The notes under the pieces: generated by a model
Database searches by the model: none
Seen by the model: the letters and a program-made list of their open reading frames with translations, nothing else
What the model was told of the DNA's origin: nothing
Made by a program: the position numbers and the translations under genes
Part shown: piece after piece, positions 2,746 through 29,465 of the stretch
Layout of the letters: every line of letters begins with the position of its first letter
How positions within the stretch are numbered: the stretch's first letter is position 1
Assembly (NCBI GenBank): GCA_965243105.1
Contig: CBDEUC010000003.1
Span: 2,088,370 to 2,152,369 of the forward strand
DNA length: 64,000 bases
Direction of reading: 5' to 3'
From: Gammaproteobacteria bacterium
Lineage (GTDB): Bacteria > Pseudomonadota > Gammaproteobacteria > Eutrophobiales > Eutrophobiaceae

Positions 2746-3198
2746 TCACTCCAGGCTGTCCGCCTTATCCTGCAGCCTGCCAAGCAAGCCAGATAGTTGA
2801 TCTTTTTCTGCGGCGGTGAGACCGCTTAGCAGCATACCCTCAAAGCGCTCTGCCACAGGCCTTACTTCGCAATAGACTGCGTGTCCCGTTTTCGACAGGC
2901 GAAGTATGGATCGTCGTCGGTCCTCCTTGTCGAATTCCCGTACCAGCAGGTGGCGACCAAGCAGTTTTGCTACGGAGCGGGAGACCACCGATTTCTCTAT
3001 GCGCGTACGCTGGCACACATCGTCAGCTGCGCTGTCGGGGTATTCAGCCAACACCGCCATGATGCGCCACTCGGGCATGCTGATGCCGAACTTGTCCTGG
3101 TAAGTGGCTGCAATTCGACTACTCACGGTATTCGAAAGCAGTGACAAGCGGTATGGAAGAAAATCTTCTAATATCAGTGGCTTATCTTCTTTATTCAT
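2746..3198 (-). CDS. MarR-family transcriptional regulator, divergent from hpd
   Basis: 150-aa protein with a winged-helix MarR architecture (…EWRIMAVLAEYPDSAADDVCQRTRIEKSVVSRSVAKLL…). It is a paralog of the 13758..14225 MarR, sharing LPYRLS, EWRVMAVL, ADEVC and SREDRRRSIL blocks. Confidence 0.85.
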   Translation of the reverse strand: MNKEDKPLILEDFLPYRLSLLSNTVSSRIAATYQDKFGISMPEWRIMAVLAEYPDSAADDVCQRTRIEKSVVSRSVAKLLGRHLLVREFDKEDRRRSILRLSKTGHAVYCEVRPVAERFEGMLLSGLTAAEKDQLSGLLGRLQDKADSLE

Positions 3199-3319: not shown

Positions 3320-4396
3320 ATGGCCGATCTTTTTGACAATCCCATGGGACTGGATGGATTTGAGTTTGTTGAATTTGCATCACCGAGGCCCGGTGTTCTT
3401 GAACCCCTGTTTGAACTGATGGGCTTTACCCATGTTGCCAGGCATCGCTCCAAGGATGTCAATCTTTACCGGCAGGGAGACATCAACTTCATCATTAATA
3501 ATGAGAAAAAAAATTACACTGCCTACTTTACCGAGGAACATGGTCCCTGTGCCTGTGGCATGGCGTTCAGGGTAAAGGATGCCCATCATGCCTATAACAG
3601 GGCGCTGGAACTGGGCGCGCAGCCCATCGACATTCCAGTGGGGCCCATGGAATTAAGATTACCGGCAATAAAAGGAATTGGCGGTGCACCGCTATACCTC
3701 ATCGATCGCTACCAGCAAGGTGCTTCTATTTATGATATTGATTTTGAATATCTCGAAGGCGTCGAAAAAAATCCGCAGGGCTTTGGCTTCAAGCATATCG
3801 ATCACCTGACGCATAATGTGTATCGCGGCCGCATGGACTACTGGGCTAACTTTTATGAAAAGATTTTTAATTTTCGCGAGCTGCGTTACTTCGACATCAA
3901 GGGCGAATATACCGGTCTCACTTCAAAGGCCATGACCGCGCCGGATGGTCGCATTCGAATACCACTCAACGAAGAGTCGTCCCAGGGTGTGGGGCAAATT
4001 GAAGAATTCCTGATGGCCTATAACGGCGAGGGAATCCAGCATATTGCCCTTGCCACTGACGATCTCATAGCCAGCTGGGACAAGTTGAAAGAAAGCGGCA
4101 TTTTCTTCATGACACCGCCACCGGCTGCATATTATGAAATGCTGGAGGAGCGATTACCCGGGCATGGAGAACCCGTGGAGGAATTGAAAAAGCGCGGTAT
4201 CCTCGTGGATGGCTCCACCGATGGCGAAGAACCACGATTGCTCCTGCAAATATTCTCTGAAACCGTGATTGGCCCGGTGTTTTTTGAATTTATCCAGCGC
4301 AAGCAGGATGAAGGCTTTGGCGAAGGTAATTTCAAGGCTCTGTTTGAATCCATCGAGAGAGACCAGGTACAGCGGGGGGTTGTGCAGGCAGTCTGA
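3320..4396 (+). CDS. hpd: 4-hydroxyphenylpyruvate dioxygenase
   Basis: 358-aa protein [22 protein letters not shown]... with a two-domain VOC fold. It resembles bacterial HPPD (Pseudomonas Hpd) throughout, including the C-terminal [14 protein letters not shown] motif. Confidence 0.93.
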
Positions 4397-8305: not shown

Positions 8306-8968
8306 CTAGATGGAAACGGACATTTCCGGCACGTTGTCCGGAACGACCAGTTCCCCTGCGGTCAGCTTGACGATTTCTTCAACGCTGACACCAGGCGCCC
8401 TTTCCACGAGGTGAAACTTGCCATCGCTGATTTCCACGTAAGCAAGATCGGTAACAACCTTTTTTATGCAGGCGGCACCGGTCAGCGGCAGGCTGCACGC
8501 TGGCAGTAACTTTGACTCGCCGTGCTTACTGGCATGGGTCATGGTAACGATGATGTTATCCGCACCCGCAACCAGGTCCATGGCACCCCCCATGCCCTTG
8601 ATCAACTTACCCGGGATCATCCACGAGGCGATATTACCCTGTACGTCCACCTCAAAGGCGCCCAGCACGGTGAGATCCACGTGCCCACCCCGGATCATGG
8701 CAAATGAATCGGCGGATGAAAAAATAGATGCACCGGTAATCGCCGTGACAGTTTGCTTTCCTGCATTGATCATGTCGGCGTCCAGTTCTTCCTCGGTAGG
8801 AAACGGTCCCATGCCAAGAAGACCATTCTCGGACTGCATCATGACTTCCATGCCTTCGGGAATGTAATTTGCCACCAGGGTAGGAATACCAATACCCAGG
8901 TTTACGTAGTAACCGTCCTGCAGCTCCTGCGCCACGCGCATTGCCATTTGTTCTCGTGTCAGTGCCAT
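8306..8968 (-). CDS. scoB: 3-oxoacid CoA-transferase subunit B
   Basis: 220-aa protein with the ENGLLGMGPFP motif carrying the catalytic Glu of family I CoA-transferase B subunits. It sits directly downstream of subunit A. Confidence 0.88.
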   Translation of the reverse strand: MALTREQMAMRVAQELQDGYYVNLGIGIPTLVANYIPEGMEVMMQSENGLLGMGPFPTEEELDADMINAGKQTVTAITGASIFSSADSFAMIRGGHVDLTVLGAFEVDVQGNIASWMIPGKLIKGMGGAMDLVAGADNIIVTMTHASKHGESKLLPACSLPLTGAACIKKVVTDLAYVEISDGKFHLVERAPGVSVEEIVKLTAGELVVPDNVPEMSVSI

Positions 8969-8981
8969 TACAGTAATTCCC

Positions 8982-9683
8982 TCATTCTGCTCGAATCGTG
9001 CGCTGCTCTATGCGCTTCTCAAACGTATTCTCGATAAGACGATTAACATATATGCCCGGTGTATGAATCTGTGACGGCTCAAGTTCCCCGGGCTCTACGA
9101 TTTCTTCAACTTCAACCACGGTGATCCTGCCGGCGGTTGCGGCCATTGGGTTAAAGTTCTGCGCCGTGTGACGATAGATCACATTGCCATAACGATCGGC
9201 TTTCCAGCCCCTGACGATGGCAAAGTCGCCGGTGATGGCCTCTTCAAGAATATAATTACGTCCATTAAATTCGCGCACTTCCTTGCCTTCCCCCACCGGA
9301 GTGCCGTAGCCGGTTGCCGTGTAAAATGCCGGGATGCCCGCGCCGCCTGCGCGCATTTTCTCCGCCAGCGTGCCCTGGGGTGTCAGTTCTACTTCAAGTT
9401 CATCACTCAGGAATTGCCGTTCAAACTCCGCGTTTTCCCCAACGTAGGAAGACACCATTTTGCTTATCTGTTTCCCCTGCAGCAGGATCCCCAGGCCAAA
9501 ATCATCTACACCACAGTTATTTGAAACGACGGTAAGATCATTGACGCCCATCTCCTTGATCTGGGCAATGCACCCTTCAGGAATGCCGCACAGGCCAAAG
9601 CCACCAGCAATGATAGTCATGCCACTTTCAAGGCCCGCCATCGCCTCTTCAAAACTGCCTACAACCTTGTCAAAACCTGACAT
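8982..9683 (-). CDS. scoA: 3-oxoacid CoA-transferase subunit A
   Basis: 233-aa protein [36 protein letters not shown]…, typical of CoA-transferase A subunits (ScoA/AtoD). Confidence 0.88.
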
Positions 9684-10641: not shown

Positions 10642-11292
10642 TCAGGCTACCGCGTCGGGTTGCGCTTCGGGGATTGCAGCCTGGAATGCCTCGAGCTCAA
10701 GGCAGTTATTTTCTATCTCCAGCAGTGTCGGGAAATCCTCGAGCGGAACGTCAAAACGGTGTGCGTTGTATAACTGCGGAACCAGGCAGATATCGGCGAT
10801 ACTGACTGAATCGCCCATGCAATAGGGGCCTTTCCAGGAAGAAGCGCCGAGAGTTTTTTCCAGCGCATTAAAACCCAGTACTATCCAGTGTACGTACCAC
10901 GCATCTTTTTTACTGTCGTCTACTTTCAATTCATGCTTGAGATACTTGAGGACCCTCAGGTTATCAAGCGGATGAATATCACAGGCTATGCTGAGCGCAA
11001 GCTGCCTGGTCATGGCACGTTGCTCCGCGTCACCAGCTATTAATGGAACCTGGGGATAGCGCTCATCGAGGTATTCCATGATGGCCAGTGACTGGCTTAA
11101 GGACACATCACCATCAACAAGGGTTGGTACAAGACCCTGGGGGTTTATGGCTTTATATTCATCCTTGTGCTGTTCGCCCCCGTCTTTGAGCATGTGAACA
11201 GCAACAGTTTCATATTCCAGCCCTTTCAGGTTTAATGCAATCCGCACCCTGTAGGCCGCAGATGAGCGCCAGTAGCTGTAGAGTTTGATCAT
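10642..11292 (-). CDS. maiA: maleylacetoacetate isomerase (zeta-class GST)
   Basis: MIKLYSYWRSSAAYRVRIALNLKG… has the characteristic SSxxYRVRIAL zeta-GST N-terminus. 216 aa. It overlaps the FAH stop by 4 nt. Confidence 0.9.
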   Translation of the reverse strand: MIKLYSYWRSSAAYRVRIALNLKGLEYETVAVHMLKDGGEQHKDEYKAINPQGLVPTLVDGDVSLSQSLAIMEYLDERYPQVPLIAGDAEQRAMTRQLALSIACDIHPLDNLRVLKYLKHELKVDDSKKDAWYVHWIVLGFNALEKTLGASSWKGPYCMGDSVSIADICLVPQLYNAHRFDVPLEDFPTLLEIENNCLELEAFQAAIPEAQPDAVA

Positions 11293-12281
11293 TCCGCAGG
11301 AGTGTACTGTTTAACTTTCTGATCGATCTTGCCGAAAATGGACTCACCATTTTTATCAAGCATCTCTATTTCAATGCGGTCACCAAACTGCATGAAAGGT
11401 GTTGAAGGCTTGCCGTCGGCAATGGTTTCAAGACAGCGAATTTCTGCCAGGCACGAGGAGCCATCCTTGCTGCCAACATTGGCAATAGTACCGGAGCCGA
11501 TGACTGTTCCAGCCATGAGAGGCCTTGATTTTGCGGCGTGGTTAATGAGCTGGGGAAAATCAAACACCATGTCGACACCGGCATTGGGTGTGCCTACCTT
11601 TTCCCCGTTCAGGGTGCTGTGCAGGGGCAGGTGCACGCGTTTACCATCCCAGGCATCACCAAGTTCGTCGGGTGTGATCGCCACCGGTGTAAAAGAAGTG
11701 TGGGGCTTGGACTGGTAAAAACCAAACTGCTTTGCAAGCTCTGCCGGGATGAGGTTTCTCAGTGAGACATCATTGACGAGCGCAATAAGCTTGATGTGCT
11801 TGCCGGCATTGTCTACCGACACGCCAGCGGGGACATCATCAGTAAAGACGACAACTTCCGATTCAAAATCAATTCCCCAGGCCTCGTCCTGAACCGGGAT
11901 ATCATCATGGGGACCCAGGAAAACATCGGATGCACCCATGTACATCAGGGGATCTGTCCAGAATGATTCCGGAAGCTCTGCGCCCCTGGCCTTTCGCACC
12001 AGTTCCACATGGGTGACATAGGCACTGCCATCTGCCCAGTGGTAAGAGCGGGGCAGGGGAGCTGCAAGTGTGCTGGTATCAAGATCAAAGCTGTCCTCTG
12101 CCGTACCTTCCTGCAGCTGATCAAACACCGCTTCAAGCTGCGGCGCTTTTTCACTCCACTCGTCCATGGCTGCCTGCATCGTGTGCGCTATTGCCGGCAC
12201 TTTTACAGCCCTTGTCATATCACGGTTAACCACGATAAGCGTGCCGTCACGGCCGCCTTCTTTGAGACTCGCTAGTTTCAC
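11289..12281 (-). CDS. fumarylacetoacetate hydrolase (FAH)-family enzyme, probable fumarylacetoacetase of the homogentisate pathway
   Basis: 330-aa FAH-fold protein (…GSGTIANVGSKDGSSCLAEIR…). It is translationally coupled to maiA and divergent from hmgA. The short form differs from the 430-aa HmgB type, so function is assigned by context. Confidence 0.75.
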   Translation of the reverse strand: MKLASLKEGGRDGTLIVVNRDMTRAVKVPAIAHTMQAAMDEWSEKAPQLEAVFDQLQEGTAEDSFDLDTSTLAAPLPRSYHWADGSAYVTHVELVRKARGAELPESFWTDPLMYMGASDVFLGPHDDIPVQDEAWGIDFESEVVVFTDDVPAGVSVDNAGKHIKLIALVNDVSLRNLIPAELAKQFGFYQSKPHTSFTPVAITPDELGDAWDGKRVHLPLHSTLNGEKVGTPNAGVDMVFDFPQLINHAAKSRPLMAGTVIGSGTIANVGSKDGSSCLAEIRCLETIADGKPSTPFMQFGDRIEIEMLDKNGESIFGKIDQKVKQYTPAE

Positions 12282-12420: not shown

Positions 12421-13752
12421 ATGGCTACCGTGATGAAAACGGATAATGACGCACAAGCGGATGCTGCCGCGGAACTTGAATACCTGAATGGTTTCGGCAA
12501 TGAACATCAATCCGAAGCCCTTGAGGGTGCCTTACCGCGTGGACAATTTTCGCCACAAAAAGTCCCCTACGGGCTGTATGCGGAGAAATTCTCTGGTACA
12601 GCCTTTACCGCACCAAGGGCAAGCAATTTTCGCAACTGGTTTTATCGAATCCGGCCGTCCGTTGTGCAGGGTGATTTTGAGCGCATGGATAATGGCCTTA
12701 TCAGGAGCGGTCCAATCACCGAGATCGAAACACCGCCAAACCAGCTGCGCTGGGATCCCTTTCCTGTTCCAGAGACGTCCACGGATTTTATCGAGGGTTT
12801 AACTACGATTGCAGCCAACGGTAACGTGGGTGTGACCGGGATCGGTATCCACATGTACCTGGCTAACAGCAGCATGGAGAAACGTTTCTTTTATAACAGT
12901 GACGGTGAGTTACTTATCGTACCGCAACAGGGGACATTTCGAGCCCATACTGAATGCGGTGTACTGGATGTTCGACCGGGCGAGATATGCGTGATTCCAC
13001 GGGGTATCAAGTTCCGTGTTGTATTACCGGATGGGCCGAGTCGTGGGTATGTGTGTGAGAACTATGGAGCACAGTTCCAGCTTCCGGAACGTGGCCCGGT
13101 GGGTTCAGACGGTTATGCTAACGACCGGGATTTCCTTGCTCCCGTTGCAAGCTATGAAGACCGGGAAGGCGAATTTGAGCTGGTAAACAAGTTTATGGGT
13201 AACCTGTTTCGCTGTGATATCGGTCATTCACCGCTCGATGTCGTGGCCTGGGTCGGCACCGCGGTTCCCTACAAGTATGATCTTTCACTGTTTAATACCA
13301 TGAACACGGTGAGTTACGATCACCCTGATCCATCCATCTTCACGGTACTTTCATCCCAGCTTGATTCACCGGGCGTGGCTAACGCGGATTTTGTTATTTT
13401 CCCGGCGCGATGGATGGTGGCCGAGGACACGTTTCGCCCACCCTGGTATCACCGTAACCTGATGAGTGAATTCATGGGTTTGATCCATGGTATGTACGAT
13501 GCCAAGCCCGAGGGCTTTGTGCCAGGCGGTGCAAGTTTACACAACAGCATGTCAGCCCATGGGCCTGATGTTGATGCCTTTGAGGGGGCGTCAAATGCTG
13601 AGCTTAAACCACATCGATACGACAATACCCTGGCTTTCATGTTTGAATCGCGCTTTGTTATCCAGCCAACAAGGTATGCACTTGAGTGTGAGCAGCGACA
13701 GGCCAACTACGTACACTGCTGGCAGGGCCTCAACAAGCATTTCGGTAAGTAA
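12421..13752 (+). CDS. hmgA: homogentisate 1,2-dioxygenase
   Basis: 443-aa protein matching HGO across its length (…[46 protein letters not shown]…, …[21 protein letters not shown]…). Confidence 0.93.
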
Positions 13753-13757
13753 GCAAA

Positions 13758-14225
13758 ATGACAAAGTCGGTGCCAGGCATTCTTGACCTGAAGAACTTCC
13801 TGCCTTATCGCCTGTCTGTTGTGACAAACAAGGTCAGCAGTAACCTGGCCAGTATGTATTCGCTCAAGTTTGACCTGAGCATTGCCGAGTGGCGTGTCAT
13901 GGCAGTACTGGGGCAGCAAAGCGATCTGTCGGCAGATGAAGTCTGTCGTGAAACAGAGATGGACAAGGTGACAGTAAGCCGCGCCGTGACAAAATTGCTC
14001 AAGAAGAAACTGTTGCAGCGCAGTTTTTCCAGGGAAGACCGGCGTCGCTCTATTCTTTGCCTGTCCAGCCGCGGCTACTCTACCTACTCGCAGATAATCC
14101 CCATGGCATTGAGCTATGAGGAATCCCTGCTGTCCGCGCTAAGTGAAAAAGAGGCCAGGCAACTGGATGAACTGCTGCTCAAGTTGAACGGGCAGGCACA
14201 GGCGTTGGCTCAATCTGAAGGCTAA
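13758..14225 (+). CDS. MarR-family transcriptional regulator (paralog of 2746..3198)
   Basis: 155-aa protein that starts 5 bp after the hmgA stop. It has strong block similarity to the hpd-linked MarR. Confidence 0.85.
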   Translation: MTKSVPGILDLKNFLPYRLSVVTNKVSSNLASMYSLKFDLSIAEWRVMAVLGQQSDLSADEVCRETEMDKVTVSRAVTKLLKKKLLQRSFSREDRRRSILCLSSRGYSTYSQIIPMALSYEESLLSALSEKEARQLDELLLKLNGQAQALAQSEG

Positions 14226-14260: not shown

Positions 14261-15982
14261 CTACCCACGCCCTGCATCGAGCAGGTTATTTAACTCCTCG
14301 CTGTGGAACCGTGCGCGTTTTCCCGTGGGTTGCAGCTCTTCTTCGTAAAAGAAAGCGGGTAGCTCGTCATCTTTCTCGGTAAACCCGGCAGCCTTGTTAA
14401 ACTCAGTTTCAAGCTCAAGGGTTTTGCGGCCGAGTTTCATAAAGAAAGAACTGTCAAGGTCAGTGCCATGGGCATCGTTGATGGCATTGGCAACCAGTTC
14501 AAGCTCCGCGGTCGTGACACTGCGTCCAAATAAACACAGGCCAAGGGAATCGGTCGCTGCGAATCCAATTTGCGTATCAAGGCTGGCTTCAAGCACCTCC
14601 TTTGCACCTTTGCCGGTCGCATCAAAACGAGGCAGGTTACCCGCGGTGTGATCCGCACCCTGTGCAGAAAGCATCATGGTCACGCCGGTGACTTCGACAA
14701 CACGTGGATCGTATGCACTGATAGCCTGCTTCTTGATAACCGGTACACGTTCAACGCCATAGTGTTCACCTACACGTGCTGTGCCCTGCGCCCAGAGTTT
14801 TCCGTCCTCACTTCCCTTGCGAATTTCTTCCAGCACGCTGATGATAAAATCCAGGTCACCAAACTTGCCGACGCCGGCTTCCATCAGTACGCCAATCATG
14901 GCACCGGTTTCAATGGTGTCAATTCCCAGGTCGTTGGCGATGTAATTGATATGGGCAAGATCGTCAGGATCGGATAATCCGCAATTGGTACCCATGAGAC
15001 CGATGGTTTCATACTCGACTGGTGACACGACTTCGTTACCATCCTTGTCGGCGTAAATATTACTGCACTGGATCAGGCAGCCAGGCATACAGGCATGGGA
15101 AGGATCGCCGCCACGAGCGATGTTCTGCTCGCGGATGAAATCACCACCCATTTTCATGGTCTCCTTATCTGTATCAACCAGCCGACCGTTACTGAAATTA
15201 TTCACCGGCAGGCCTCCGATATGATTCATATAGTCAGCCATCATGGCCGTCCCCAGTTTTCGATAACTGTCCACCATGCTATCGGTCTTTATTTTGCCGG
15301 CATATTCCTTGATCGCGCCGATCACTTTCTTGCGCTCGTGTAGCTCCGGCATCTTGTGCAGTTCCATGACAATTGCCTTCACCCTTTTACTACCCATCAC
15401 CGCCCCGATTCCTCCCCGGGCTGCGAGACGTGAGGGTCGCAGGTCAGTATCACTGATAGCGATACCTGCCAGGAGTCCCTGGTATTCTCCTACGGGGCCG
15501 CACAGGGCAATACTGGTTTTCTTACCGTACTTTTCATGCAGCTGGGCCGCTGTTTCAAAATTCCCCTTGCCCATGTAGGGCCTGGCATCGTCAAAATTTA
15601 TATCGCCTTCTTTTGATATGTGAATAATCACCCACTCATCAGCGACGCCATAGAGATTCAGTCCCGAGATATGTAACTGGCCCATGGCAACACCCAGCGT
15701 GCCTCCCGCATTGGCTTCCTTGATACCACCTGTCAGTGGACTCTTGCAGCCGAAACTGGTGCGGTTGGCATTGGAAAAGTTGGTGCCTGCAAAGGGGCCG
15801 GCTGAAATAATCAAGGGGTTGTCAGCGGACAGGGGATCCACCTTTGCAATATCGTTCTCACAAAGGGTCTTTGCGATAAGATAACGACCGGCAAAGGCGA
15901 CTTCTTCGCCACTGATTTCCTTCTTGTCGATTTCCTTTTTATCCAGGTCTATGTGCAGGTATGAGCGCGAGACATTTGTCAT
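14261..15982 (-). CDS. aldehyde:ferredoxin oxidoreductase (AOR) family, tungsten/molybdopterin-dependent
   Basis: 573-aa protein. It matches Pyrococcus-type AOR motifs: DPLSADNPLIISAGPFAGT…KSPLTGG, AARGGIGAVMGSKRVKAIV, C-x(3)-C in MPGCLIQC, and C-terminal DSLGLCLF. Confidence 0.85.
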   Translation of the reverse strand: MTNVSRSYLHIDLDKKEIDKKEISGEEVAFAGRYLIAKTLCENDIAKVDPLSADNPLIISAGPFAGTNFSNANRTSFGCKSPLTGGIKEANAGGTLGVAMGQLHISGLNLYGVADEWVIIHISKEGDINFDDARPYMGKGNFETAAQLHEKYGKKTSIALCGPVGEYQGLLAGIAISDTDLRPSRLAARGGIGAVMGSKRVKAIVMELHKMPELHERKKVIGAIKEYAGKIKTDSMVDSYRKLGTAMMADYMNHIGGLPVNNFSNGRLVDTDKETMKMGGDFIREQNIARGGDPSHACMPGCLIQCSNIYADKDGNEVVSPVEYETIGLMGTNCGLSDPDDLAHINYIANDLGIDTIETGAMIGVLMEAGVGKFGDLDFIISVLEEIRKGSEDGKLWAQGTARVGEHYGVERVPVIKKQAISAYDPRVVEVTGVTMMLSAQGADHTAGNLPRFDATGKGAKEVLEASLDTQIGFAATDSLGLCLFGRSVTTAELELVANAINDAHGTDLDSSFFMKLGRKTLELETEFNKAAGFTEKDDELPAFFYEEELQPTGKRARFHSEELNNLLDAGRG

Positions 15983-16143: not shown

Positions 16144-18027
16144 TTACCAGGCAATTCCATAGTCATCACCGTAGTTGCTCGCCGCGCCCCACATGCTACC
16201 GTGTTCGCGGTCAAACCAGATGGCGGTTATCGGGCCTGAGGTTCGTTCCTTCAGTTCGATTCGGTAACCCATTTTTTCAAGTTTTGATTGTACCTCAGCG
16301 GGCGTGTCATCACGAAGCCTGAGTTTACCCGGCTCTGCAGGATGATCCCTGAAGGAGCCGCGCATCTGGAAGCTGTTGATATTTGCTGCCTCCGCTGCTT
16401 CCTGTGGCCCCATGTTCCAGTGCTGCATATTCAACAGGAATTGCAGCAGGTTCTGGTCCTGGGTATCTCCACCCTGCACAGAAAACGCCAGCCAGGGTTC
16501 GCCATTTTTCATGGCTATACCCGGGGTCAGGGTTGCGCGGGGTCGCTTGCCGGGTGTCACGACATTAAAAGGGTTTTCCGCCGGATCCAGAACAAAGCTT
16601 TGCATGCGCTGGGACAGGCCGATGCCGCTTTTACCTGCAACAAAGGCCGGTATCCAGCCACCGCTGGGTGTCACCGAGATTATCCAGCCTTCTGCATCGG
16701 CAGCCTGGATGGACGTGGTGCCCGCCAGGAACGATTCATCAATGGTCTCATCGCCCAGGGTGATGATATGCCCGTCAGCACCTGTTGATTTTTGTTCGTG
16801 CCATTTATCCAGGTAATGCGTGTAGGGATTGGTTTCTCCCTGGAAAGGGTAGGGGTCACCGGGCTTACTGACGGGATCATTTTTTTCCCAGTTGATTTGT
16901 TGAAATCGTTTTTTTGCGTATTCCCTGGACAACAGACCCTTGAGGGGTTCCTCGGGTGGAAAGTAAGGGTCGCCGTAGTAAAAGTCCCGGTCGGCGAAAG
17001 CCAGGTTCATGGCCTGGTACAGGGTATGGATATAGTCGGCGCTGTTATAGCCCATTTTTTCAAGGTCAACATTCTCGAGGATATTCAGGGTCTGCAGCAA
17101 AACAGGTCCCTGCACCCAGGAAGTTAACTTGTAGACATCAATACCCCTGTAGTTAGTCGAAACAGGCTCCTCTATGTAGACCTGCCACTTGTCGAGATCT
17201 GAAAGACTGAGAAGGCCTCCTGCCTCCCTGGTTGACCTGGCAATCTCACGGGCGATATCACCACGGTAGAAACGCTTGTATGCAGTATAGATTGCCTCTT
17301 TTCGAGATTTGCCTTCGGCAAGGGCTTTTGCTTCGCGCTTGACGAGCTTGCGCAGGGTTGATGCGAGGTCCGGCTGGTGGAATATTTCACCGGCGCGGGG
17401 CCCCGGGTTGTCCCTGTCTTCCGGGTGAGTGAAGAATACTTTCCGCGACGCAGGCCAGGACGCAATATCTTCCGCGTACTTTTTTATGCTCTTCGCGGCT
17501 GCGGCCTCCATGGGATAGCCATCCGCCATTTCAATGGCGGGCGCCAGCACCTGGGCCAGGGACAGGTTTCCCCATTCGGCGAGCATGGTCATAAGACCGC
17601 CCGGTGTGCCCGGAACCACCGCGGCAAGCGGACCCTTGTGGGGAGGATAGTTGTAGCCCTTATCCAGGAAAAATTCGGGAGTTGCGCCTGCCGGGGCAGT
17701 ACCAAGGGCATTGATGCCAATGATCCTTTTTTCTCCTGGATGATAAATCAGCGCCTGTGTTTCACCTCCCCAGCCCAGTACGTCCCACATGGTGCTTGTT
17801 GTTGCCAGCATCGCCATGGCGGCATCGATGGCATTTCCGCCTTGCTGGAACATCATCGCACCGCTTGTCGCTGCCAGCGGTTTACCGGTCACGGCCACCC
17901 AGTGCTTGCCATGTAATGCCGGCTTCTGCGTATCTGCCGCCTGTGAGCCGCCAGAGAAAAACAGGCCAAGCAGGACACACGCTTCTACCAGCTGTCTGGT
18001 TAGTGGATATTTGCCCATGATTAACAC
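16144..18027 (-). CDS. ggt: gamma-glutamyltranspeptidase (secreted)
   Basis: 627-aa protein with an N-terminal signal peptide (…LLGLFFSGGSQA), a GGT fold, and the autoprocessing Thr region (…GTTSIQAAD…). The start may be the downstream Met (MGKYP). Confidence 0.85.
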   Translation of the reverse strand: MLIMGKYPLTRQLVEACVLLGLFFSGGSQAADTQKPALHGKHWVAVTGKPLAATSGAMMFQQGGNAIDAAMAMLATTSTMWDVLGWGGETQALIYHPGEKRIIGINALGTAPAGATPEFFLDKGYNYPPHKGPLAAVVPGTPGGLMTMLAEWGNLSLAQVLAPAIEMADGYPMEAAAAKSIKKYAEDIASWPASRKVFFTHPEDRDNPGPRAGEIFHQPDLASTLRKLVKREAKALAEGKSRKEAIYTAYKRFYRGDIAREIARSTREAGGLLSLSDLDKWQVYIEEPVSTNYRGIDVYKLTSWVQGPVLLQTLNILENVDLEKMGYNSADYIHTLYQAMNLAFADRDFYYGDPYFPPEEPLKGLLSREYAKKRFQQINWEKNDPVSKPGDPYPFQGETNPYTHYLDKWHEQKSTGADGHIITLGDETIDESFLAGTTSIQAADAEGWIISVTPSGGWIPAFVAGKSGIGLSQRMQSFVLDPAENPFNVVTPGKRPRATLTPGIAMKNGEPWLAFSVQGGDTQDQNLLQFLLNMQHWNMGPQEAAEAANINSFQMRGSFRDHPAEPGKLRLRDDTPAEVQSKLEKMGYRIELKERTSGPITAIWFDREHGSMWGAASNYGDDYGIAW

Positions 18028-18135
18028 TCTTGATAGTAATCCCGAAGCCTATTATGCACCGACTTTTGTTGCTGGTCGTTGTAATATTAGCCTGGGTAAT
18101 TGATCTACCAGGATACGTTAACTCGAGGCTTCTAG

Positions 18136-18690
18136 ATGTCGAACAGTTTCTGGGAATTTTCCGTAGCGACCTATGGCAAAGATGGTGTGCCCGCGGCCTG
18201 TCTTGGCCTGCAGGATAGCCTGGATGTGGATGTTAATGTCCTGCTGTTTTGTTGCTGGTTTGGACTGACACGTGGTCATATCGAGGAAGAAAGATTTACG
18301 CAACTGCTGGCAGCTTCTGAATTGTGGGCGAGCAGGGTAGTGAGACCTCTTCGAGGAGCCAGGCGCTGGATGAAGGAAGAAGTCTATGAATCTCTCCAGC
18401 TGGATACAGAGAGCGTGTCGAGCCTGCGTGAAAAAATAAAGAGTAACGAGCTTGGTGCAGAGAAAATCCAGCAGGATTTACTACTGGCAATTGTGGAAGA
18501 TCTTGCGGGTAAGCAGATGAACGTGGAAGAGCAGCTGGATGCGGTGCTTGATAATATACGGCGCTACCTCGGTAAAAAGGAAATCCAGGTTGTTGGCGCC
18601 AGCGCCGCTGACCTTTGTCATGTTATCTCGTCTGCCAGTGACGATTTTGATAGCGCTGCCGTGAGAGCAAGGCTTGAACAACACTCCTAG
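18136..18690 (+). CDS. hypothetical protein, DUF2390/TIGR02444-like
   Basis: 184-aa protein MSNSFWEFSVATYGKDGVPAACLGLQD…. Family assignment is from memory. Its stop overlaps the ubiX stop by 4 nt (convergent). Confidence 0.5.
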   Translation: MSNSFWEFSVATYGKDGVPAACLGLQDSLDVDVNVLLFCCWFGLTRGHIEEERFTQLLAASELWASRVVRPLRGARRWMKEEVYESLQLDTESVSSLREKIKSNELGAEKIQQDLLLAIVEDLAGKQMNVEEQLDAVLDNIRRYLGKKEIQVVGASAADLCHVISSASDDFDSAAVRARLEQHS

Positions 18691-19259
18691 TCTTTACGAC
18701 GGTTTCCTTCCCACCGTTTCACAATACCGGAATCCATGGCAAACAGGTCCAGCACGCGTCCTACCGAATGGTTGACGATGTCATCGATAGTTTCCGGCCG
18801 GTTGTAGAAGGCGGGCATGGGAGGTGCCAGCTGGATCCCCATCTGCGCAGCTTCATAAAGTAAGCGGCAATGCCCAACATGAAGCGGTGTCTCCCGGGGC
18901 ATGAGGACGAGCTTGCGTCCTTCCTTGAGAACAACATCTGCTGCGCGCGATAACAGGTCATCAGCATAGGAATTAACGATCGCTGAAAGGGTTTTCATGG
19001 AGCAGGGTGCGACTATCATGCCATCGGTTCTAAAGGAGCCACTGGATATCGTCGCCGCAACGTCGTTAAAGTTATGCTGTACATCGGCCAGTGCTTCAAC
19101 ATCCTTGATTTGCAGGTCAGTCTCAATGGGGATATTCATCTTGGCCGTAGGCGACATGACAAGATGTGTTTCCACGTCCTTCTGTTCTTTCAGTACCTGT
19201 AGCAGGCGAATACCGTATATCACGCCGCTTGAGCCAGAGATGCCTATAATCAGGCGCAT
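18687..19259 (-). CDS. ubiX: flavin prenyltransferase UbiX (prFMN synthase)
   Basis: MRLIIGISGSSGVIYGIRLL… is the canonical UbiX/Pad1 N-terminus. The start is taken at ATG 19259, because the ORF-track extension to 19337 has no homology. About 190 aa. Confidence 0.88.
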   Translation of the reverse strand: MRLIIGISGSSGVIYGIRLLQVLKEQKDVETHLVMSPTAKMNIPIETDLQIKDVEALADVQHNFNDVAATISSGSFRTDGMIVAPCSMKTLSAIVNSYADDLLSRAADVVLKEGRKLVLMPRETPLHVGHCRLLYEAAQMGIQLAPPMPAFYNRPETIDDIVNHSVGRVLDLFAMDSGIVKRWEGNRRKD

Positions 19260-19463
19260 TGCTGTGGTCCTCTTTTCATCACCAGTGGGAGTATAGCAGT
19301 AAGCCCCTGCGCGTTTACAAGGGGCGAAATATTGCAATGCACCAAATCACTTATTTCGCAGACTGGAACCTGTGCTGAATTCATCTTCAAGTCGTCGTGA
19401 CAAAGGTTATACTTTGAAAAATCCCGACCTGTTTCAGTCAATATTTAATAGAAGGTAATCATC

Positions 19464-20828
19464 ATGGATCTTGCCAAACGCAACTTGATAGACATGCAGC
19501 AGTATCTTGCATTCCTCGAAGAAAACGATCACCTGGTACGTGTAAAAAGCGAGGTTGATCCTTACCTCGAACTGGCAGGTATCGCAAAAAAGTATGAGGG
19601 CGGTAAAGCCGTATATTTTGAAAAAGTAAAGGGAAGCGAATTCCCGGTGCTGCTTGGTTTCTATTGGAACCGCGACATATTGGCAAAGCTTTTCAACGTG
19701 GCTTCCGGCGATTTACCCTTCGTTATTGCAGACGACATCAGGGCCTGGCGACAGTCGCCAATGGAGTCACCGGTACTCAAGCAGGGACCGGCCAATGAAG
19801 TGATTGAAGATGAAGTCGATCTTTATGCATTGCCTATCCCGCATCATTCAGAAGGCGATGGCGGTTGCTACCTCACATCCAGCGTCGTGGTGGCAAAGGA
19901 TCCGGACACCGGTGTGCGCAACCTCTCCGTGCATCGCATGATGGTCGTTGGAAAAAACCGCTTTACGCTGCTGCTGGAAGAACTCGGCCACCTGATGGAT
20001 TATTTCAAGCGGGCGGAAGCGAAGGGCGAGGCGCTGGAATTGACAGTGAGTAACGGAATCGATTTTCCAGTCCTGATGGCAGCCGCTGCCCCTGCGTCCG
20101 CCGCACCCATGGAAATGGATGAAGTTGGCATTGCCAGCCAGCTGCGTGGCGAGCCGGTTGAGTTACTGGAATCGCAAACCGTTGGTGTTGAAGGAATTGC
20201 CAATGCCCAGTTTATTATCGAGGGAAAGATCCTTCCCAACATTCGAGAGCCGGAAGGACCGTACGCAGAGGTCACAGGTTATTATGCAGAGAGGGAAGAC
20301 CGCTGGGTATTTGAAGCAACTGCAGTCACGCGCCGTAAAGACCCCGTTTTCCAGTCCATCCTTTCTGGTAAAGAGGTGTATAACGCCTTTGGAATTGGCG
20401 CCAGCGCAGCCGTATTTGACAAGGTCCACTCGGTGGTTCCGGATGTGACCGCAGTACACTTTTCCAATGGCTCTGTGCCCTATCACCTGGTCGTGCAGAT
20501 TGACAAGAAGCATGAAGGTATTCAGCGTAATGCCATGATGGCGGCGTTCGTGTCTCATCCCTTCGTCAAGACGGTGACCCTGGTCGATCCTGACGTGGAC
20601 ATTTACAGCGTCGACGATGTTGAGTGGGCTGTACAAACACGTTGTCGTTTTGACCAGGACGTGATTTTTGCAGATGGCATCGGACACCGGCTCAATCCCA
20701 GCGTGGAGAATGATCACTGGACGCGTATCGGTTTTGACGCCACCGTGCCCTTGCCAAAAGAGGACAAGTTTGTTCGCGCCACTGTCAAGCAGGTAAACCT
20801 CGAAGACTATGAAATTGAAGGCGGCTAG
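19464..20828 (+). CDS. UbiD-family (prFMN-dependent) decarboxylase
   Basis: 454-aa protein. The N-terminus aligns to E. coli UbiD (…VDPYLELAGIAKKYEGGKAVYFEKVKGSEFPVLLGF…). The conserved EGPYAEVTGYY block (E. coli EGPYGDHTGYY) is present. It is divergent from ubiX. Confidence 0.85.
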   Translation: MDLAKRNLIDMQQYLAFLEENDHLVRVKSEVDPYLELAGIAKKYEGGKAVYFEKVKGSEFPVLLGFYWNRDILAKLFNVASGDLPFVIADDIRAWRQSPMESPVLKQGPANEVIEDEVDLYALPIPHHSEGDGGCYLTSSVVVAKDPDTGVRNLSVHRMMVVGKNRFTLLLEELGHLMDYFKRAEAKGEALELTVSNGIDFPVLMAAAAPASAAPMEMDEVGIASQLRGEPVELLESQTVGVEGIANAQFIIEGKILPNIREPEGPYAEVTGYYAEREDRWVFEATAVTRRKDPVFQSILSGKEVYNAFGIGASAAVFDKVHSVVPDVTAVHFSNGSVPYHLVVQIDKKHEGIQRNAMMAAFVSHPFVKTVTLVDPDVDIYSVDDVEWAVQTRCRFDQDVIFADGIGHRLNPSVENDHWTRIGFDATVPLPKEDKFVRATVKQVNLEDYEIEGG

Positions 20829-20904
20829 ACCCTGCAATCCTGGAAAAATAGTCTACACTTATATATGAGTGTTCCTCACTATAAATGCCACCATTCGTGG
20901 CAGT

Positions 20905-20940
20905 AGCCCCCTTGCGCCGGCGATGGGGGCATTTGTGTTC
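20905..20940 (+). terminator. Probable rho-independent terminator after the ubiD-family gene
   Basis: GCCCCCttgcgccggcgatGGGGGC stem followed by ATTTGTGTT. It is preceded by a smaller hairpin TGCCACcattcGTGGCA. Confidence 0.45.
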
Positions 20941-25023: not shown

Positions 25024-25385
25024 TGGTGGAGGCGGCGGGAGTCGAACCCGCGTCCGCAAGTACTCTGCCTTTGGTTCTACATGCTTAGCCGACTCTATTA
25101 ATTTAACTGGCTGCTACCCGAACGGCAGGGAAAACAATCAGCGAGTTCGTAAAGTTTTAACGAATCATTCCCGAACAAAAGTCATCGCGAGCTTATGTGA
25201 GTCGACGCCTGGAACCGGGCGCATAAGCACACACCGGGCAGACGGCACCCTACTGGGTATTAAGCAGCGAGTGCGTAGTTGTCGTCGTTGGCAACTATAT
25301 AAAGTGCAGCTGGTTTAACGAGGTAATCTGCACCTCGGCATGCCCCTCGGGTTTCGCTACCCACGTCGAAGCCAAGTGCGCCCCC
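25024..25385 (-). ncRNA. ssrA: tmRNA (SsrA), tag peptide ANDDNYALAA
   Basis: Minus-strand 5' GGGGGCGCACUUGGCUUCGACGUGGGUAGCGAAACCCGAGGGGCAUGCCGAGG… and 3' …GGACGCGGGUUCGACUCCCGCCGCCUCCACCA. The tag reading frame is GCCAACGACGACAACUACGCACUCGCUGCUUAA. Length is about 362 nt. A terminator hairpin AAAGCCACttttGTGGCTTTT follows. Confidence 0.92.
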
Positions 25386-26467: not shown

Positions 26468-26944
26468 TCAGCCCCGCTTCATAATGCGTTGTTTTTGCCT
26501 CTGCCAGTCCCTGTCCTTCAGGCTGTCCCGCTTGTCGTGAGCCTGTTTGCCCCTCGCGATACCGATTTCGACCTTGGCCTTACCTCGTTTCCAGTACATC
26601 GCCGTGACCACCAGGGTAAATCCCTTTCGTTCAACGGCACCGGTCAGGCGGTCAATCTCTTTCTTGTGTAGCAGTAATTTTCGACTCCGCCTCGGGTCCG
26701 GCGTGATATGGGTAGATGCCGTGGGAAGAGGTGTAATCAGGGTGCTTTGCAGGAAAATCTCTCCGTTCTTCAGGTGCACATAGTTATCCCGAATCTGGAC
26801 TTTACCCGCGCGCAGGCTTTTAACTTCCCACCCTTCGAGAACGATGCCTGCTTCCAGCCGATCTTCAATAAAGTAGTCATGTCTCGCCTTCTTGTTCAGA
26901 ACGATCGTGTTGGAACCCTGCTTTTGTTTTTTATCTGCTGCCAT
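26468..26944 (-). CDS. smpB: SsrA-binding protein
   Basis: [48 protein letters not shown]… is canonical SmpB. 158 aa. Confidence 0.93.
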
Positions 26945-27050: not shown

Positions 27051-29465
27051 TTAGCGCATCTGGCTTTGCTGAATCGCCATGCTGGCCTGGTTTCTCAGTG
27101 TTTTGAAGAAACCAAGCGCATCCATGGAGATGTTCGTCGATGCATCATCCGTATCGGCGTAAATGACGCCGATACAGCGGTTTTTCAAAAATATCGGGTA
27201 CAGCACAACGGTGTGGGGCGCGGTCAGCTTCCTGAGCCAGTAGGGAATGCGATCGCGGTATTCGCTGGAATTACTGTCCAGCACGATAAAGTCCCGGTTC
27301 CGCGTCACCGCCACGCTGACAATGTCATCCGATGATTCTATTCGCCCTCGAAATTTGCCAGCGATCTCATCGATTTGCTTGCCCAGCCCGAACCTGCCGA
27401 CAACCTGGTTATTGCGCCTGTCATAGATACAGAAGAGCACGCGGGTGAAGCCCATACCGGTATAGATATTTTCCAGGATCATGGCGAGCACATCGTTGAG
27501 CTTGAATTCACCGAGCATGACCTCGGTGATCTCCGCGATACCTCTTACCAGCGCATCCTTGTCGCCCACGCTGGGCGCCTGCGCCGTGGTCGTGCCCTGG
27601 CTTGCCTGGACCACCGCGGTTTCATCCTGTCCTGCATGGGCGGTTTCCCCGGTGGCTGGCATGGGCACCTGGGTAATGGTTGCATCTGCATCGGGAAAGA
27701 TTTCCACGTCACTGATGTCTATGTTCAGCGCCTTGCTGAATTCCTTCATTTCCTTTTTTGAGGATTTAACCAGGCTCCTGATATCTTCCTTCTTGATACC
27801 GATGGATTTTCCATACCTCTCCGTCAGTACTTCTATCGCCTCGTCGTTATCTTCCCTGCCATTCATGCCCAGTTCACAAAGCTCGTTTGAAAAGCAGGCG
27901 AGGTGGGAAATGCGCGTATCGAGGTTTTTTGCCTCGCCAACGGGACCTTCAGGCAGGCGCTTCATACTGTTTACGATGACATCAGGTAATTGCCACTCCC
28001 TCGCGATAGCCATGCCGAGGTCATCGTAGGAGACACCGAGGACTGCCAGCGCGGCCTGTGCCTCTTCCATGCCCTTGTTATTTACCAGTCCCTTTATCTC
28101 GCCGTATTCCTCCGGGAAATAGTAAATAGCCAGCTGTTTGCCGAGCTTGTGAAACATGGCGGCAACAAAAGACGTTTCGACATCATCGTTATCAATGTCG
28201 CCCATGAGCTCAGCCTGTTCACGGGATATGATCCCACTCATCAGGGCACCGCACGCAGCCCCTTTTAATTCTGTTGCCTGCTTATTGTTCTGCAGGTGTT
28301 CAAACAGGATGATGCTGAGCGCCGCTGCCCGCACCTGCTCAAAGCCGAGAATAATCACGGCACGGGAAATAGTCGTTATTTCTCCACCGAATTGACCGTA
28401 AAAGGACGCATTAACAAGACGCAGCAGCTTGGTAGTCAGTGCATAGTCCTTGAGTATGATGTTGGCGAGCTCTGAGGCTGAGGAGTTCGTGTCGTGGGAT
28501 GAACGACGGGTTATCTGCGTAATATTGGTAGATATTGCGGGAAAATCCTGCTTGCGCTGCATGCGCCTGAGTAGAAAATCAACCGTGCCGAGGCCGGCAC
28601 TACCACCCTCATCAACAGCGATGCCGGGGTTCTCGGGCTTTGCATAGCTGTCCAGTTCTGCTTTCATTGTCACCGCGGATTCAAAACGCTGCGAGGTGTC
28701 TTTTTGCAGGGCGCCCATGACTATTTCATCCAGCTTCTTTTCAATAGATTTTTCCCGGCTCGATGGTGGCAATATGTTTTCGTTGGTTATCTTGAACATC
28801 ACTGCCATGCTGTTATCCGCGCTGAAGACCTGGTGAGCGGTTAACATTTCATAAAGAATCAGGCCAATGGCAAAGATATCAACGGAAGGTCCAAGCTCCC
28901 CGTTGGAAATTTGTTCCGGCGCCATGTAGTTGACCGTGCCTATTACATCACTGGTTCTCGATTCCGTATCAAGCATGATGGAGATGCCAAAATCCATGAT
29001 ATGCGGCACGTTCTTTGAATCGATCATGATATTGGCCGGGTTGAGATCCCTGTGCACGATACCGTTGCGATGGGCGTAACCCATCGCATCAAGCAGCTGG
29101 CGCGTGATATCCACGGCTTCGAGAGCTTTCAATCGCCCGTTACGTTTCAGCATGTCCCTGAGGGATTCGCCCTCGCACAGCTGGTAAACAAGGTAGGGAT
29201 TATTTTTCTCGACCCCGATCTCGTAGATTGGAATGATATTGAGATGTTCAAGCTTGCTGACATTGCGCGCTTCCTGGATCAGCTGGCTGTGATCGCTGCG
29301 ATGCTTGTCCAGGGTCTTGATTGCCACCTGCCTGTCCAGTTGCGGATCGTGGGCCAGGTAGACCACGCCCTGCGATCCTTTTCCAAGACAGCTCAGAACT
29401 TCAAATCGACCGATAGATTCGGGTAATTGTGCTGCCTGCAGGCTCGCTGATAACGTGGCGCTCAT
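27051..29465 (-). CDS. multidomain signalling protein: Hanks-type Ser/Thr protein kinase + HDOD domain + C-terminal GAF domain
   Basis: The N-terminus has kinase subdomains: GKGSQGVVYLA…VAIK, HRDLNPANIM, DFG, APE. The middle has an HDOD-like region (…ITQITRRSSHDTNSSASELANIILKDYALTTKLLRLVNASFYG…). The C-terminus is a GAF-like domain. 804 aa. Confidence 0.8.
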   Translation of the reverse strand: MSATLSASLQAAQLPESIGRFEVLSCLGKGSQGVVYLAHDPQLDRQVAIKTLDKHRSDHSQLIQEARNVSKLEHLNIIPIYEIGVEKNNPYLVYQLCEGESLRDMLKRNGRLKALEAVDITRQLLDAMGYAHRNGIVHRDLNPANIMIDSKNVPHIMDFGISIMLDTESRTSDVIGTVNYMAPEQISNGELGPSVDIFAIGLILYEMLTAHQVFSADNSMAVMFKITNENILPPSSREKSIEKKLDEIVMGALQKDTSQRFESAVTMKAELDSYAKPENPGIAVDEGGSAGLGTVDFLLRRMQRKQDFPAISTNITQITRRSSHDTNSSASELANIILKDYALTTKLLRLVNASFYGQFGGEITTISRAVIILGFEQVRAAALSIILFEHLQNNKQATELKGAACGALMSGIISREQAELMGDIDNDDVETSFVAAMFHKLGKQLAIYYFPEEYGEIKGLVNNKGMEEAQAALAVLGVSYDDLGMAIAREWQLPDVIVNSMKRLPEGPVGEAKNLDTRISHLACFSNELCELGMNGREDNDEAIEVLTERYGKSIGIKKEDIRSLVKSSKKEMKEFSKALNIDISDVEIFPDADATITQVPMPATGETAHAGQDETAVVQASQGTTTAQAPSVGDKDALVRGIAEITEVMLGEFKLNDVLAMILENIYTGMGFTRVLFCIYDRRNNQVVGRFGLGKQIDEIAGKFRGRIESSDDIVSVAVTRNRDFIVLDSNSSEYRDRIPYWLRKLTAPHTVVLYPIFLKNRCIGVIYADTDDASTNISMDALGFFKTLRNQASMAIQQSQMR

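Follow-up and report, generated by a model that had tools for sequence, protein, structure and literature searches.

We examined a 64,000-nucleotide stretch of DNA (the window) in which a ubiX gene lies beside a gene for a 454-aa UbiD-family protein, and probably this protein is a UbiX-supplied prFMN enzyme of the InD supergroup that decarboxylates a soluble (hetero)aromatic acid, and not the UbiD of ubiquinone synthesis. The core of the initial annotation thus stands: an aromatic-acid (de)carboxylase that depends on prFMN, has a UbiX of its own and lies outside ubiquinone synthesis. This reading is upheld by the low score against the canonical-UbiD model, the grouping with the indole-3-carboxylate decarboxylase AnInD and the contexts of the orthologues, while two arguments offered for it, a C-terminal truncation and a tie to aromatic genes upstream, both fail. 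Family models confirmed the three genes of the locus, and the divergent orientation of ubiX and the UbiD-like gene as well as the overlap of the DUF2390 gene with the ubiX stop (positions 18687-18690) were also as described (Table 1).

Table 1. Features of the ubiX/UbiD-like locus, in positions of the window.
Feature	Position	Strand	Remarks
DUF2390/TIGR02444 gene	18136..18690	+	184 aa; convergent with ubiX, overlap 4 bp
ubiX, predicted flavin prenyltransferase making prFMNH2	18687..19259	-	190 aa from the probable start, ATG 19259
Divergent intergenic region	19260..19463	.	204 bp; presumably carries the promoters of the two flanking genes
UbiD-family gene, predicted prFMN-dependent decarboxylase of the InD supergroup	19464..20828	+	454 aa
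Terminator-like GC-rich hairpin	20906..20940	+	GCCCCC...GGGGGC then ATTTGTGTT; 3' of the UbiD-like gene

The protein has the full-length three-domain UbiD architecture (UbiD_N PF20695, 7e-18; UbiD PF01977, 4.5e-55; UbiD_C PF20696, 1.2e-23), and its 284.5 bits against TIGR00148 (cut-off 244.85) place it in the UbiD family. However, it reached only 143.3 bits with the canonical-UbiD equivalog NF008175, for which the cut-off is 788 bits, and it shares 27% identity (130 bits) with E. coli UbiD. Its nearest solved relative is AnInD of Arthrobacter nicotianae (PDB 7P9Q; E 1e-100, 341 bits, 41% identity over the full length; PMC8988006), followed by PtHmfF (PDB 6H6V; E 2e-91, 310 bits, 40% identity). 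A phylogeny with characterised members of the family, which the initial annotation had called for, was run by neighbour-joining only and on a limited sample; in it the clade of the window protein was monophyletic (100/100 bootstraps) and grouped with the sequence P0167 and the AnInD clade in 99/100, in the InD/HmfF-type part of the tree, outside the HmfF branch and apart from the ubiquinone UbiD lineage. Judged by its sequence, then, the enzyme belongs to the InD supergroup and is not the ubiquinone-pathway UbiD. With AnInD it shares the sub-branch and a similar length (454 versus 461 aa), but at 41% identity it represents a separate, tightly conserved lineage of marine gammaproteobacteria. 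Long homologues in the AnInD clade (594-809 aa) contained no extra Pfam domains. Many members of the clade carry the JGI name '2,5-furandicarboxylate decarboxylase 1'.

The protein had been described as lacking about 40 C-terminal residues of UbiD, which proved wrong, as its alignment with E. coli UbiD runs from residue 1 to the C-terminus. The 43-residue difference in length stems mainly from an internal insertion of ~21 residues in E. coli UbiD, near residue 100, that is missing from the window protein, and the rest from small indels and ~12 residues at the C-terminus. Moreover, 454 aa is a usual length in the InD/HmfF branch, AnInD (461 aa) and PtHmfF (448 aa) both matching over nearly their full length.

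Alignment placed the residues of UbiD-type catalysis at the expected positions. The network R158/E264/E269 corresponds to R155/E261/E266 of AnInD and R180/E285/D290 of E. coli UbiD, L410 is the conserved equivalent of AnInD L409, and N153, H176 and E220 align with N175, H196 and E241 of E. coli UbiD, positions that, after the Fdc1 and UbiD structures, we take to be the Mn2+/K+ ligands. Across 120 orthologues these ligands, the triad and the leucine are either invariant or conserved to at least 98%, and the subclade of the window protein departs from the other orthologues only at conservative positions outside the motifs. A further pair of residues, Glu172-Glu173, is invariant in the clade, where the AnInD clade has Asp-Ala (Asp169-Ala170 in AnInD) and E. 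coli UbiD Leu-Ser. Glu172 thereby aligns with AnInD Asp169, being likewise acidic and one methylene longer; in AnInD, for which the roles of D169, R155 and E266 have been described, Asp169 hydrogen-bonds the indole NH (PMC8988006). In HmfF the histidine H296/H297 sets the specificity for furans (PMC7976604). This His296/297 is replaced in the window protein by Val305, and Arg304 of HmfF by Ala313, both invariant in the clade, whereas the HmfF-like branch keeps the His and an Arg/Lys; the valine is common to the window protein and AnInD.

The mechanical open reading frame of ubiX (18687-19337, minus strand) extends upstream to a TTG at 19337. Since the Pfam match begins only at its residue 27 and an AGAGGA ribosome site lies 8 nt upstream of ATG 19259, translation probably starts at this ATG, which gives the length of the protein and the divergent spacer listed in Table 1. 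Scores of 266.8 bits with NF004685 (cut-off 188) and 228 bits with TIGR00421 (cut-off 108.9) identify the product as a UbiX-family flavin prenyltransferase. Its closest match is Pad1 of E. coli O157 (1SBZ; 230 bits over residues 1-185), its identity to E. coli K-12 UbiX is 59%, and it almost reaches the VdcB-specific model, which it misses with 254 versus 290 bits. Its automatic name is '4-hydroxy-3-polyprenylbenzoate decarboxylase'. E. coli UbiD and UbiX belong to these two families and share the logic of the cofactor, but there, as the initial annotation held for gammaproteobacteria in general, the genes are unlinked (~1.6 Mb apart in K-12), and here they are linked. In this the locus resembles the EcdB/Pad1 and VdcB/VdcC/VdcD systems, where prenyltransferase and decarboxylase genes are also linked, and HmfF/HmfG, where a catabolic UbiD-type decarboxylase of ~450 aa is encoded together with HmfG, its UbiX-like flavin prenyltransferase partner. 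Unlike the Vdc-type systems, however, the genes in the window are divergent and do not form one operon, and the decarboxylase is not a VdcC (247.1 bits with NF041204, cut-off 650); no candidate for a small subunit resembling VdcD was noticed next to it. Linked pairs of this type for aromatic-acid decarboxylation are already well known, so that the main finding is of a familiar kind.

A TATACT -10-like element of the divergent spacer is seen again in relatives, and alignment with them showed that only this TATAC/AT-like element and the ribosome site are conserved. As a candidate operator the spacer offered one 8-nt inverted repeat (19324-19359), which we rejected, as it is not kept beyond the nearest relative; an Rfam search around the gene pair returned no riboswitch or other RNA family. 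The hairpin behind the UbiD-like gene was read straight from the sequence, an automatic scan reporting further hairpins at 20886-20907, and it suggests a monocistronic transcript.

Next to the pair, the window has no transporter, regulator or downstream catabolic gene, and the partners typical of orthologues (aromatic-acid MFS transporter, gamma-CA, TPP decarboxylase, aldehyde dehydrogenase) are absent from its whole length; the argument from gene context thus comes from orthologues at 61-79% identity. The aromatic genes upstream, to which the pair had been tied, make up an ordinary tyrosine/homogentisate pathway with its own MarR. GGT and AFOR (aldehyde:ferredoxin oxidoreductase) genes, the latter 3.5 kb away, lie between them and the pair, and the synteny is confined to the closest relatives (L002, L004), while L066, whose UbiX is 84% identical, differs upstream. 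We also considered a genomic island at the tmRNA gene nearby and rejected it, for the window contains no second ssrA 3' end and its GC content is even. Megablast of the window against E. coli genomes returned no match, so that the DNA is not from E. coli, and exact look-ups of its UbiD-like and DUF2390 proteins returned no record.

More than 800 homologues were found at E<=1e-30, and we compared 62 genomic loci with orthologues of 61-99% identity, mostly from marine gammaproteobacterial MAGs; cultured carriers are Marinobacterium lutimaris DSM 22012 and M. mangrovicola DSM 27697 (loci L021 and L042). An aromatic-acid/H+ symporter gene stands beside the decarboxylase gene in 25 of them, a gamma-CA-like gene directly upstream in 17, and ubiX directly downstream in several. 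Loci of Halieaceae add an IpdC-like TPP decarboxylase, an aldehyde dehydrogenase and an FAD oxidase, and others HpaG-like hydrolases, an HpcH aldolase, an amidase, an amidohydrolase and a three-subunit molybdenum hydroxylase. The distribution is patchy and the contexts vary; one MAG has two copies (L002, L049), as would suit a family of catabolic genes. The isolate names of some of the MAGs resemble those of bins from sponge and coral microbiomes, a possible source. The clade as a whole is large (>100 clusters at 61-99% identity) and tightly conserved; it is widespread in uncultured marine Gammaproteobacteria and sister to the only known indole-3-carboxylate decarboxylases.

By analogy with the biochemistry of AnInD, HmfF and Fdc1, UbiX would form prFMNH2 by prenylating reduced FMN from dimethylallyl phosphate, the 454-aa protein would bind the cofactor through the Mn2+/K+ ligands N153, H176 and E220 and mature it oxidatively, and the R158-E264-E269 network would then carry out a reversible, non-oxidative decarboxylation by covalent prFMN catalysis. 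Both the direction of the reaction and the class of substrate are what we infer from such comparisons: decarboxylation of a (hetero)aromatic acid is the most likely function, and since Glu172 occupies the site from which AnInD Asp169 bonds the indole NH, the most likely substrate is an acid bearing N-H or O-H, similar to indole-3-carboxylate and probably not identical with it. The substrate, once found, would bring a new specificity to a family prized for fixing CO2 reversibly and for activating C-H bonds, and would also correct the two automatic names given above.

The narrower case nested within this explanation, a true indole-3-carboxylate decarboxylase with the substrate of AnInD, we regard as possible and rather unlikely. 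No characterised enzyme is closer than AnInD, a member of the same supergroup, in both proteins valine stands where HmfF has its histidine and position 169 (AnInD numbering) is acidic, and Halieaceae clusters contain a gene of the indolepyruvate decarboxylase family (IpdC-like) together with an aldehyde dehydrogenase. However, 41% identity does not fix the substrate, the clade is a lineage of its own, and Glu-Glu replaces Asp-Ala at 172-173; the change from Asp to Glu may shift specificity, because AnInD is reportedly strictly specific and its D169 variants are severely impaired (PMC8988006). The molybdenum hydroxylase, amidase and amidohydrolase contexts point instead to other N-heteroaromatic acids.

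Decarboxylation also has to be weighed against the reverse reaction, a physiological carboxylase that fixes CO2 onto a heteroarene, pulled for example by the nearby AFOR and helped in relatives by the gamma-CA-like protein. UbiD reactions are reversible, AnInD coupled to a carboxylic acid reductase made an aldehyde from indole and CO2 (PMC8988006), an AFOR gene also occurs within 10 kb of some orthologues in other arrangements (L015, L017, L018, L029), and the gamma-CA-like gene directly precedes the decarboxylase gene in the 17 loci mentioned. Nevertheless we consider this improbable, as the equilibrium at ambient conditions favours decarboxylation (PMC8988006), the AFOR gene is not kept beside the pair even in near relatives such as L066 and its product might just as well generate the acid from an aldehyde, and the uptake-type aromatic-acid symporters argue for consumption of the acid.

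A housekeeping role, in which the protein would be a non-orthologous stand-in for UbiD in the ubiquinone pathway, paired with the only UbiX of the genome, appears highly unlikely. It could draw on the membership in the UbiD family, the adjoining UbiX with its 59% identity to the housekeeping enzyme of E. coli K-12, and the fact that neither a canonical ubiD nor any second UbiD homologue is present within the 64-kb window. The 498-aa ORF at 1093-2589, which has the size of a canonical UbiD, actually encodes a PLP-dependent decarboxylase. Nor did the orthologue loci contain a canonical ubiD, the best candidate being 30% identical to E. coli UbiD, and a UbiD paralogue of 503-512 aa adjoining UbiX in relatives was rejected at 173-198 bits versus the 788 of the equivalog. 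Against the housekeeping role stand the distance from this equivalog and from E. coli UbiD, the polar Glu172-Glu173 in place of Leu-Ser, the patchy distribution with variable contexts and paralogues in one MAG, and the linkage to aromatic-acid transporters and catabolic genes. The hmf clusters contain a three-subunit molybdenum hydroxylase. Although such a hydroxylase in some orthologue loci, the JGI name and the 40% identity to PtHmfF could suggest an HmfF, a 2,5-furandicarboxylate decarboxylase, there is very little chance of this given Val305 and Ala313 in place of the specificity residues and a clade that groups with AnInD.

Thus, our preferred reading remains a prFMN-dependent decarboxylase supplied by its own UbiX, and the third gene of the locus may bear on the same cofactor system. 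Together with the small 2Fe-2S ferredoxin that often precedes it, the DUF2390 protein might conceivably be an unrecognised accessory factor of UbiX/prFMN, an idea that we put forward as speculative; it may act in prFMN maturation or delivery, in electron transfer (FMN reduction, prFMN oxidation) or in the supply of the prenyl donor. We raise it because the pairing with UbiX recurs across gene arrangements and UbiD partners, and because further, so far unidentified prFMN helper proteins are explicitly expected (PMC10865409), for which the association of DUF2390 (and the ferredoxin) with UbiX offers a concrete candidate. Known accessories of UbiX/UbiD are LpdD, a prFMNH2 chaperone, and PhdC/YclD, a prFMN maturase (PMC10865409, PMC13040415). 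Like DUF2390, these are small proteins whose genes repeatedly adjoin ubiX, but LpdD is a beta-sandwich and PhdC has an HpaC-like flavin reductase fold, whereas DUF2390 is predicted to be all-alpha, with a fold that matches no solved structure in the PDB. The literature on DUF2390 held nothing on its function. The gene product was assigned by Pfam PF09523 (1.3e-27, 96.6 bits, cut-off 25) and TIGR02444 (90 bits, cut-off 48.3), and an alignment of 36 homologues contained 23 invariant columns. In related marine bacteria the gene, often with the ferredoxin gene in front, recurs beside ubiX both in convergent, overlapping and in divergent order, and this pair adjoins either of two different UbiD-family enzymes, or no such enzyme at all.

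The initial annotation paired ubiX with a UbiD-like gene outside ubiquinone synthesis, and there is good support for reading the pair as a prFMN-dependent decarboxylase of aromatic acids, not of the ubiquinone pathway, together with the enzyme that makes its cofactor, since the decarboxylase fails the UbiD equivalog model (143 bits versus 788), ruling out canonical UbiD, and joins the supergroup of AnInD, the indole-3-carboxylate decarboxylase of Arthrobacter nicotianae (7P9Q). VdcC was also ruled out (247 bits versus 650), and the protein scored below the cut-offs of the menaquinone and phenylphosphate carboxylase models. It is 41% identical to AnInD, 40% to PtHmfF, a 2,5-furandicarboxylate decarboxylase (6H6V), and 27% to E. 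coli UbiD. The claim that it is short by about 40 C-terminal residues did not hold: its residues 1-435 align with 1-464 of E. coli UbiD, from residue 1 to the C-terminus, and the 43-residue gap comprises an internal insertion of about 21 residues near residue 100 of E. coli UbiD, small indels and about 12 C-terminal residues. Because this alignment runs end to end and the nearly full-length matches AnInD (E 1e-100) and PtHmfF (E 2e-91) have 461 and 448 amino acids, the protein has the length usual in its InD/HmfF branch and is not a truncated UbiD.

A search of 1.84 billion representatives returned 640 proteins at a threshold of E<=1e-30; beyond the query's own clade, even the nearest clusters reach only 42-50% identity. 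In a neighbour-joining tree built from 50 sequences with 100 bootstraps, the query clade was monophyletic in 100/100 replicates and, in line with the non-ubiquinone assignment, grouped with the AnInD clade and the homologue P0167 in 99/100, with HmfF-like sequences apart. Alignment equated R158/E264/E269 with AnInD R155/E261/E266, N153/H176/E220 with E. coli UbiD N175/H196/E241 and L410 with AnInD L409, and across 120 orthologues all these residues are invariant or almost invariant. AnInD Asp169, the proposed hydrogen-bond partner of the indole NH, whose variants are severely impaired (PMC8988006), corresponds to Glu172, which, like Glu173, is invariant, where members of the AnInD clade carry Asp-Ala. 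Thus, although AnInD is the nearest known enzyme, we do not name the query an indole-3-carboxylate decarboxylase, since its own clade, marked by a Glu-Glu signature, is distinct and uncharacterised. The histidine conferring furan specificity on HmfF (PMC7976604) is replaced by Val305, as in AnInD, and HmfF Arg304 by Ala313; given these positions and the tree, the JGI name of many clade members, '2,5-furandicarboxylate decarboxylase 1', is unsupported. Public automatic names seem wrong for UbiX homologues too ('4-hydroxy-3-polyprenylbenzoate decarboxylase').

Coordinates of features in the window and in loci of decarboxylase orthologues (L002-L023) or UbiX/DUF2390 relatives (L066-L082)
Feature	Coordinates	Strand	Remark
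PLP-dependent decarboxylase	1093-2589		aromatic amino acid decarboxylase-like
MarR	2746-3198
HPPD	3320-4396
CoA transferase A/B subunits	8306-9683
GST	10642-11292		maleylacetoacetate-isomerase-like
Fumarylacetoacetase	11289-12281
hmgA	12421-13752
Second MarR	13758-14225		49% identical to first MarR
AFOR	14261-15982	-	tungsten/molybdenum-pterin type; 3.5 kb from UbiX/UbiD-like pair
GGT-family protein	16144-18027
ORF	17789-18103	+	antisense shadow of GGT 5' end
DUF2390/TIGR02444	18136-18690	+	Pfam, NCBIfam
UbiX-family flavin prenyltransferase ORF	18687-19337	-	NF004685, 267 bits vs 188-bit cut-off
UbiD-family protein	19464-20828	+	all three domains; TIGR00148, 284.5 bits vs 244.85
ORF	20163-20837	-	antisense shadow of UbiD-like gene
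Hairpin and T-rich tail	~20906-20940
tmRNA	25024-25385	-	tag ANDDNYALAA
smpB	26468-26944	-
804-aa protein	27051-29465	-	Ser/Thr protein kinase and HDOD domains
ORFs without Pfam match	38534-39079; 44576-45343; 45371-45946; 48651-50186		181, 255, 191 and 511 aa
Lhr-type helicase	50255-54760		1501 aa
DUF2390	L002 8678-9232; L003 4051-4605; L004 8325-8879
Gamma-carbonic-anhydrase-like	L017 9450-9983; L023 9435-9980
AFOR	L017 16052-17764; L018 15777-17537
DUF2390 beside UbiX	L066 4666-6132; L073 4653-6051; L076 3257-4549; L078 4678-6213; L080 4650-6111; L082 5001-6124
503-512-aa UbiD paralogue	L066 6407-7918; L073 6137-7675; L078 6356-7867; L080 6237-7754
MarR after paralogue	L066 7923-8396; L078 7884-8342; L080 7768-8235

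Scanning one genome per species yielded 62 orthologue loci (61-99% identity), nearly all from uncultured marine Gammaproteobacteria (Halieaceae, Halioglobus, Pseudomonadales, unclassified gammaproteobacterial MAGs); Marinobacterium lutimaris, M. mangrovicola and Elongatibacter sediminis are cultured carriers. The divergent layout with UbiX and DUF2390 is confined to the closest relatives (L001-L004, 87-99%), UbiX lies directly 3' of the decarboxylase on the same strand in L024, L026, L028, L037, L045, L050 and L062, and the other loci have no UbiX within 10 kb. An aromatic-acid/H+ symporter (TIGR00895, PcaK-like) adjoins the decarboxylase in 25 loci, and in 17 a gamma-carbonic-anhydrase-like hexapeptide-repeat protein is encoded immediately 5' on the same strand. 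Halieaceae loci contain a 3-hydroxyacyl-CoA-dehydrogenase-like gene, an FAD oxidase, an aldehyde dehydrogenase, an indolepyruvate/phenylpyruvate-decarboxylase-like TPP enzyme, a second MFS transporter and a TonB receptor, and another group has HpaG-like hydrolases, an HpcH aldolase, an amidase beside aldehyde:ferredoxin oxidoreductase (AFOR), an amidohydrolase and a three-subunit molybdenum hydroxylase. These neighbourhoods are catabolic, (hetero)aromatic-acid contexts, and since all differences between the window's subclade and the others are conservative and lie outside the motifs, the same role may reasonably be carried over to the window's enzyme. Two copies in one MAG (L002, 89%, and L049, 67%) and a second, tandem UbiD paralogue at several loci (L005, L020, L049) fit a substrate-diversified catabolic family. 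The typical partner genes occur nowhere in the 64-kb window, nor does a second UbiD homologue. In the loci with the gamma-carbonic-anhydrase-like gene, which is absent from the window, an enzyme that releases CO2 is accompanied by one that may act on CO2/bicarbonate.

Pfam and NCBIfam identities confirmed the three annotated ORFs at their reported coordinates in this window of about 51% GC, and the proposed arrangement stands, with DUF2390 and ubiX convergent and overlapping by 4 bp and ubiX divergent from the decarboxylase gene. Since the UbiX domain match starts at residue 27 of the mechanical ORF and an AGAGGA ribosome site lies 8 nt 5' of the ATG at 19259, UbiX most likely starts there and has 190 amino acids, leaving a divergent spacer of 204 bp. 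The decarboxylase stop codon is followed by a GC-rich hairpin with a T-rich tail, which suggests a single-gene transcript; Rfam gave no family match in the region. UbiX scored 230 bits against E. coli O157 Pad1 (1SBZ) and 108 bits against P. aeruginosa UbiX, and it shares 59% identity with the housekeeping UbiX of E. coli K-12 as well, so its type appears compatible with either a dedicated partner or a general cellular prFMN source and cannot tell them apart. Its identity to the UbiX proteins encoded next to orthologous decarboxylases at other loci is 66-71%.

The pair had also been tied to aromatic catabolic genes farther 5'. That block is an ordinary tyrosine/homogentisate pathway, and the tie finds no support, because hmgA-block synteny is limited to L002 and L004 and other genes lie 5' in L066, where UbiX is 84% identical. 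AFOR, not conserved in L066, turns up again, in other layouts, within 10 kb of orthologues (L017, L018; about +10.1 to +10.4 kb in L015/L029), preceded in these four by an amidase gene. On the 3' side lie genes for a CBS-pair protein, an AIM24-family protein, a WrbA-like flavoprotein and a methyltransferase, then tmRNA, smpB and the housekeeping genes recN, nadK, hrcA, dnaK, dnaJ and dapB. The window holds no second copy of the tmRNA 3' end and thus no sign of an island integrated there. The 511-aa ORF without a Pfam match adjoins the Lhr-type helicase gene.

The pair itself is a known kind of system from an uncharacterised clade; the association of DUF2390 (and ferredoxin) with UbiX is a further lead. 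In a metagenome scan and eight homologue look-ups, a small sample of one DUF2390 subfamily picked solely for long contigs, DUF2390 repeatedly adjoined UbiX, convergently in L066-L068, L070-L074, L078, L080 and L082 and divergently in L076; L076 and L082 have no nearby UbiD gene, and L077, L079 and L081 lack UbiX within 4-5 kb. The DUF2390 and UbiX homologue lists share 11 exact contig sizes, several below 10 kb. A 105-aa 2Fe-2S ferredoxin gene, missing from the window, lies directly 5' of DUF2390 in L004, L066, L071, L073/L074, L077, L078 and L080; its place is taken here by ORF 17789-18103, which is nevertheless unrelated to ferredoxin. Compared with L002-L004, the window's DUF2390 is 39-43% identical, whereas its flanks are far more conserved (UbiX 78-85%, decarboxylase 87-89%), and its invariant positions fall mostly in the N-terminal ~115 residues. 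Since its structure model resembles neither LpdD, a beta-sandwich prFMN chaperone (PMC10865409), nor PhdC, an HpaC-like prFMN maturase (PMC13040415), and a literature search on its function came back empty, gene neighbourhood alone points to a possible part for it in the prFMN system. Divergent from UbiX in L066, L073/L074, L078 and L080 is another, uncharacterised UbiD paralogue of 503-512 aa, followed by MarR, which is not canonical UbiD (173-198 bits versus 788); in L066, an InD-like gene comes right after them.
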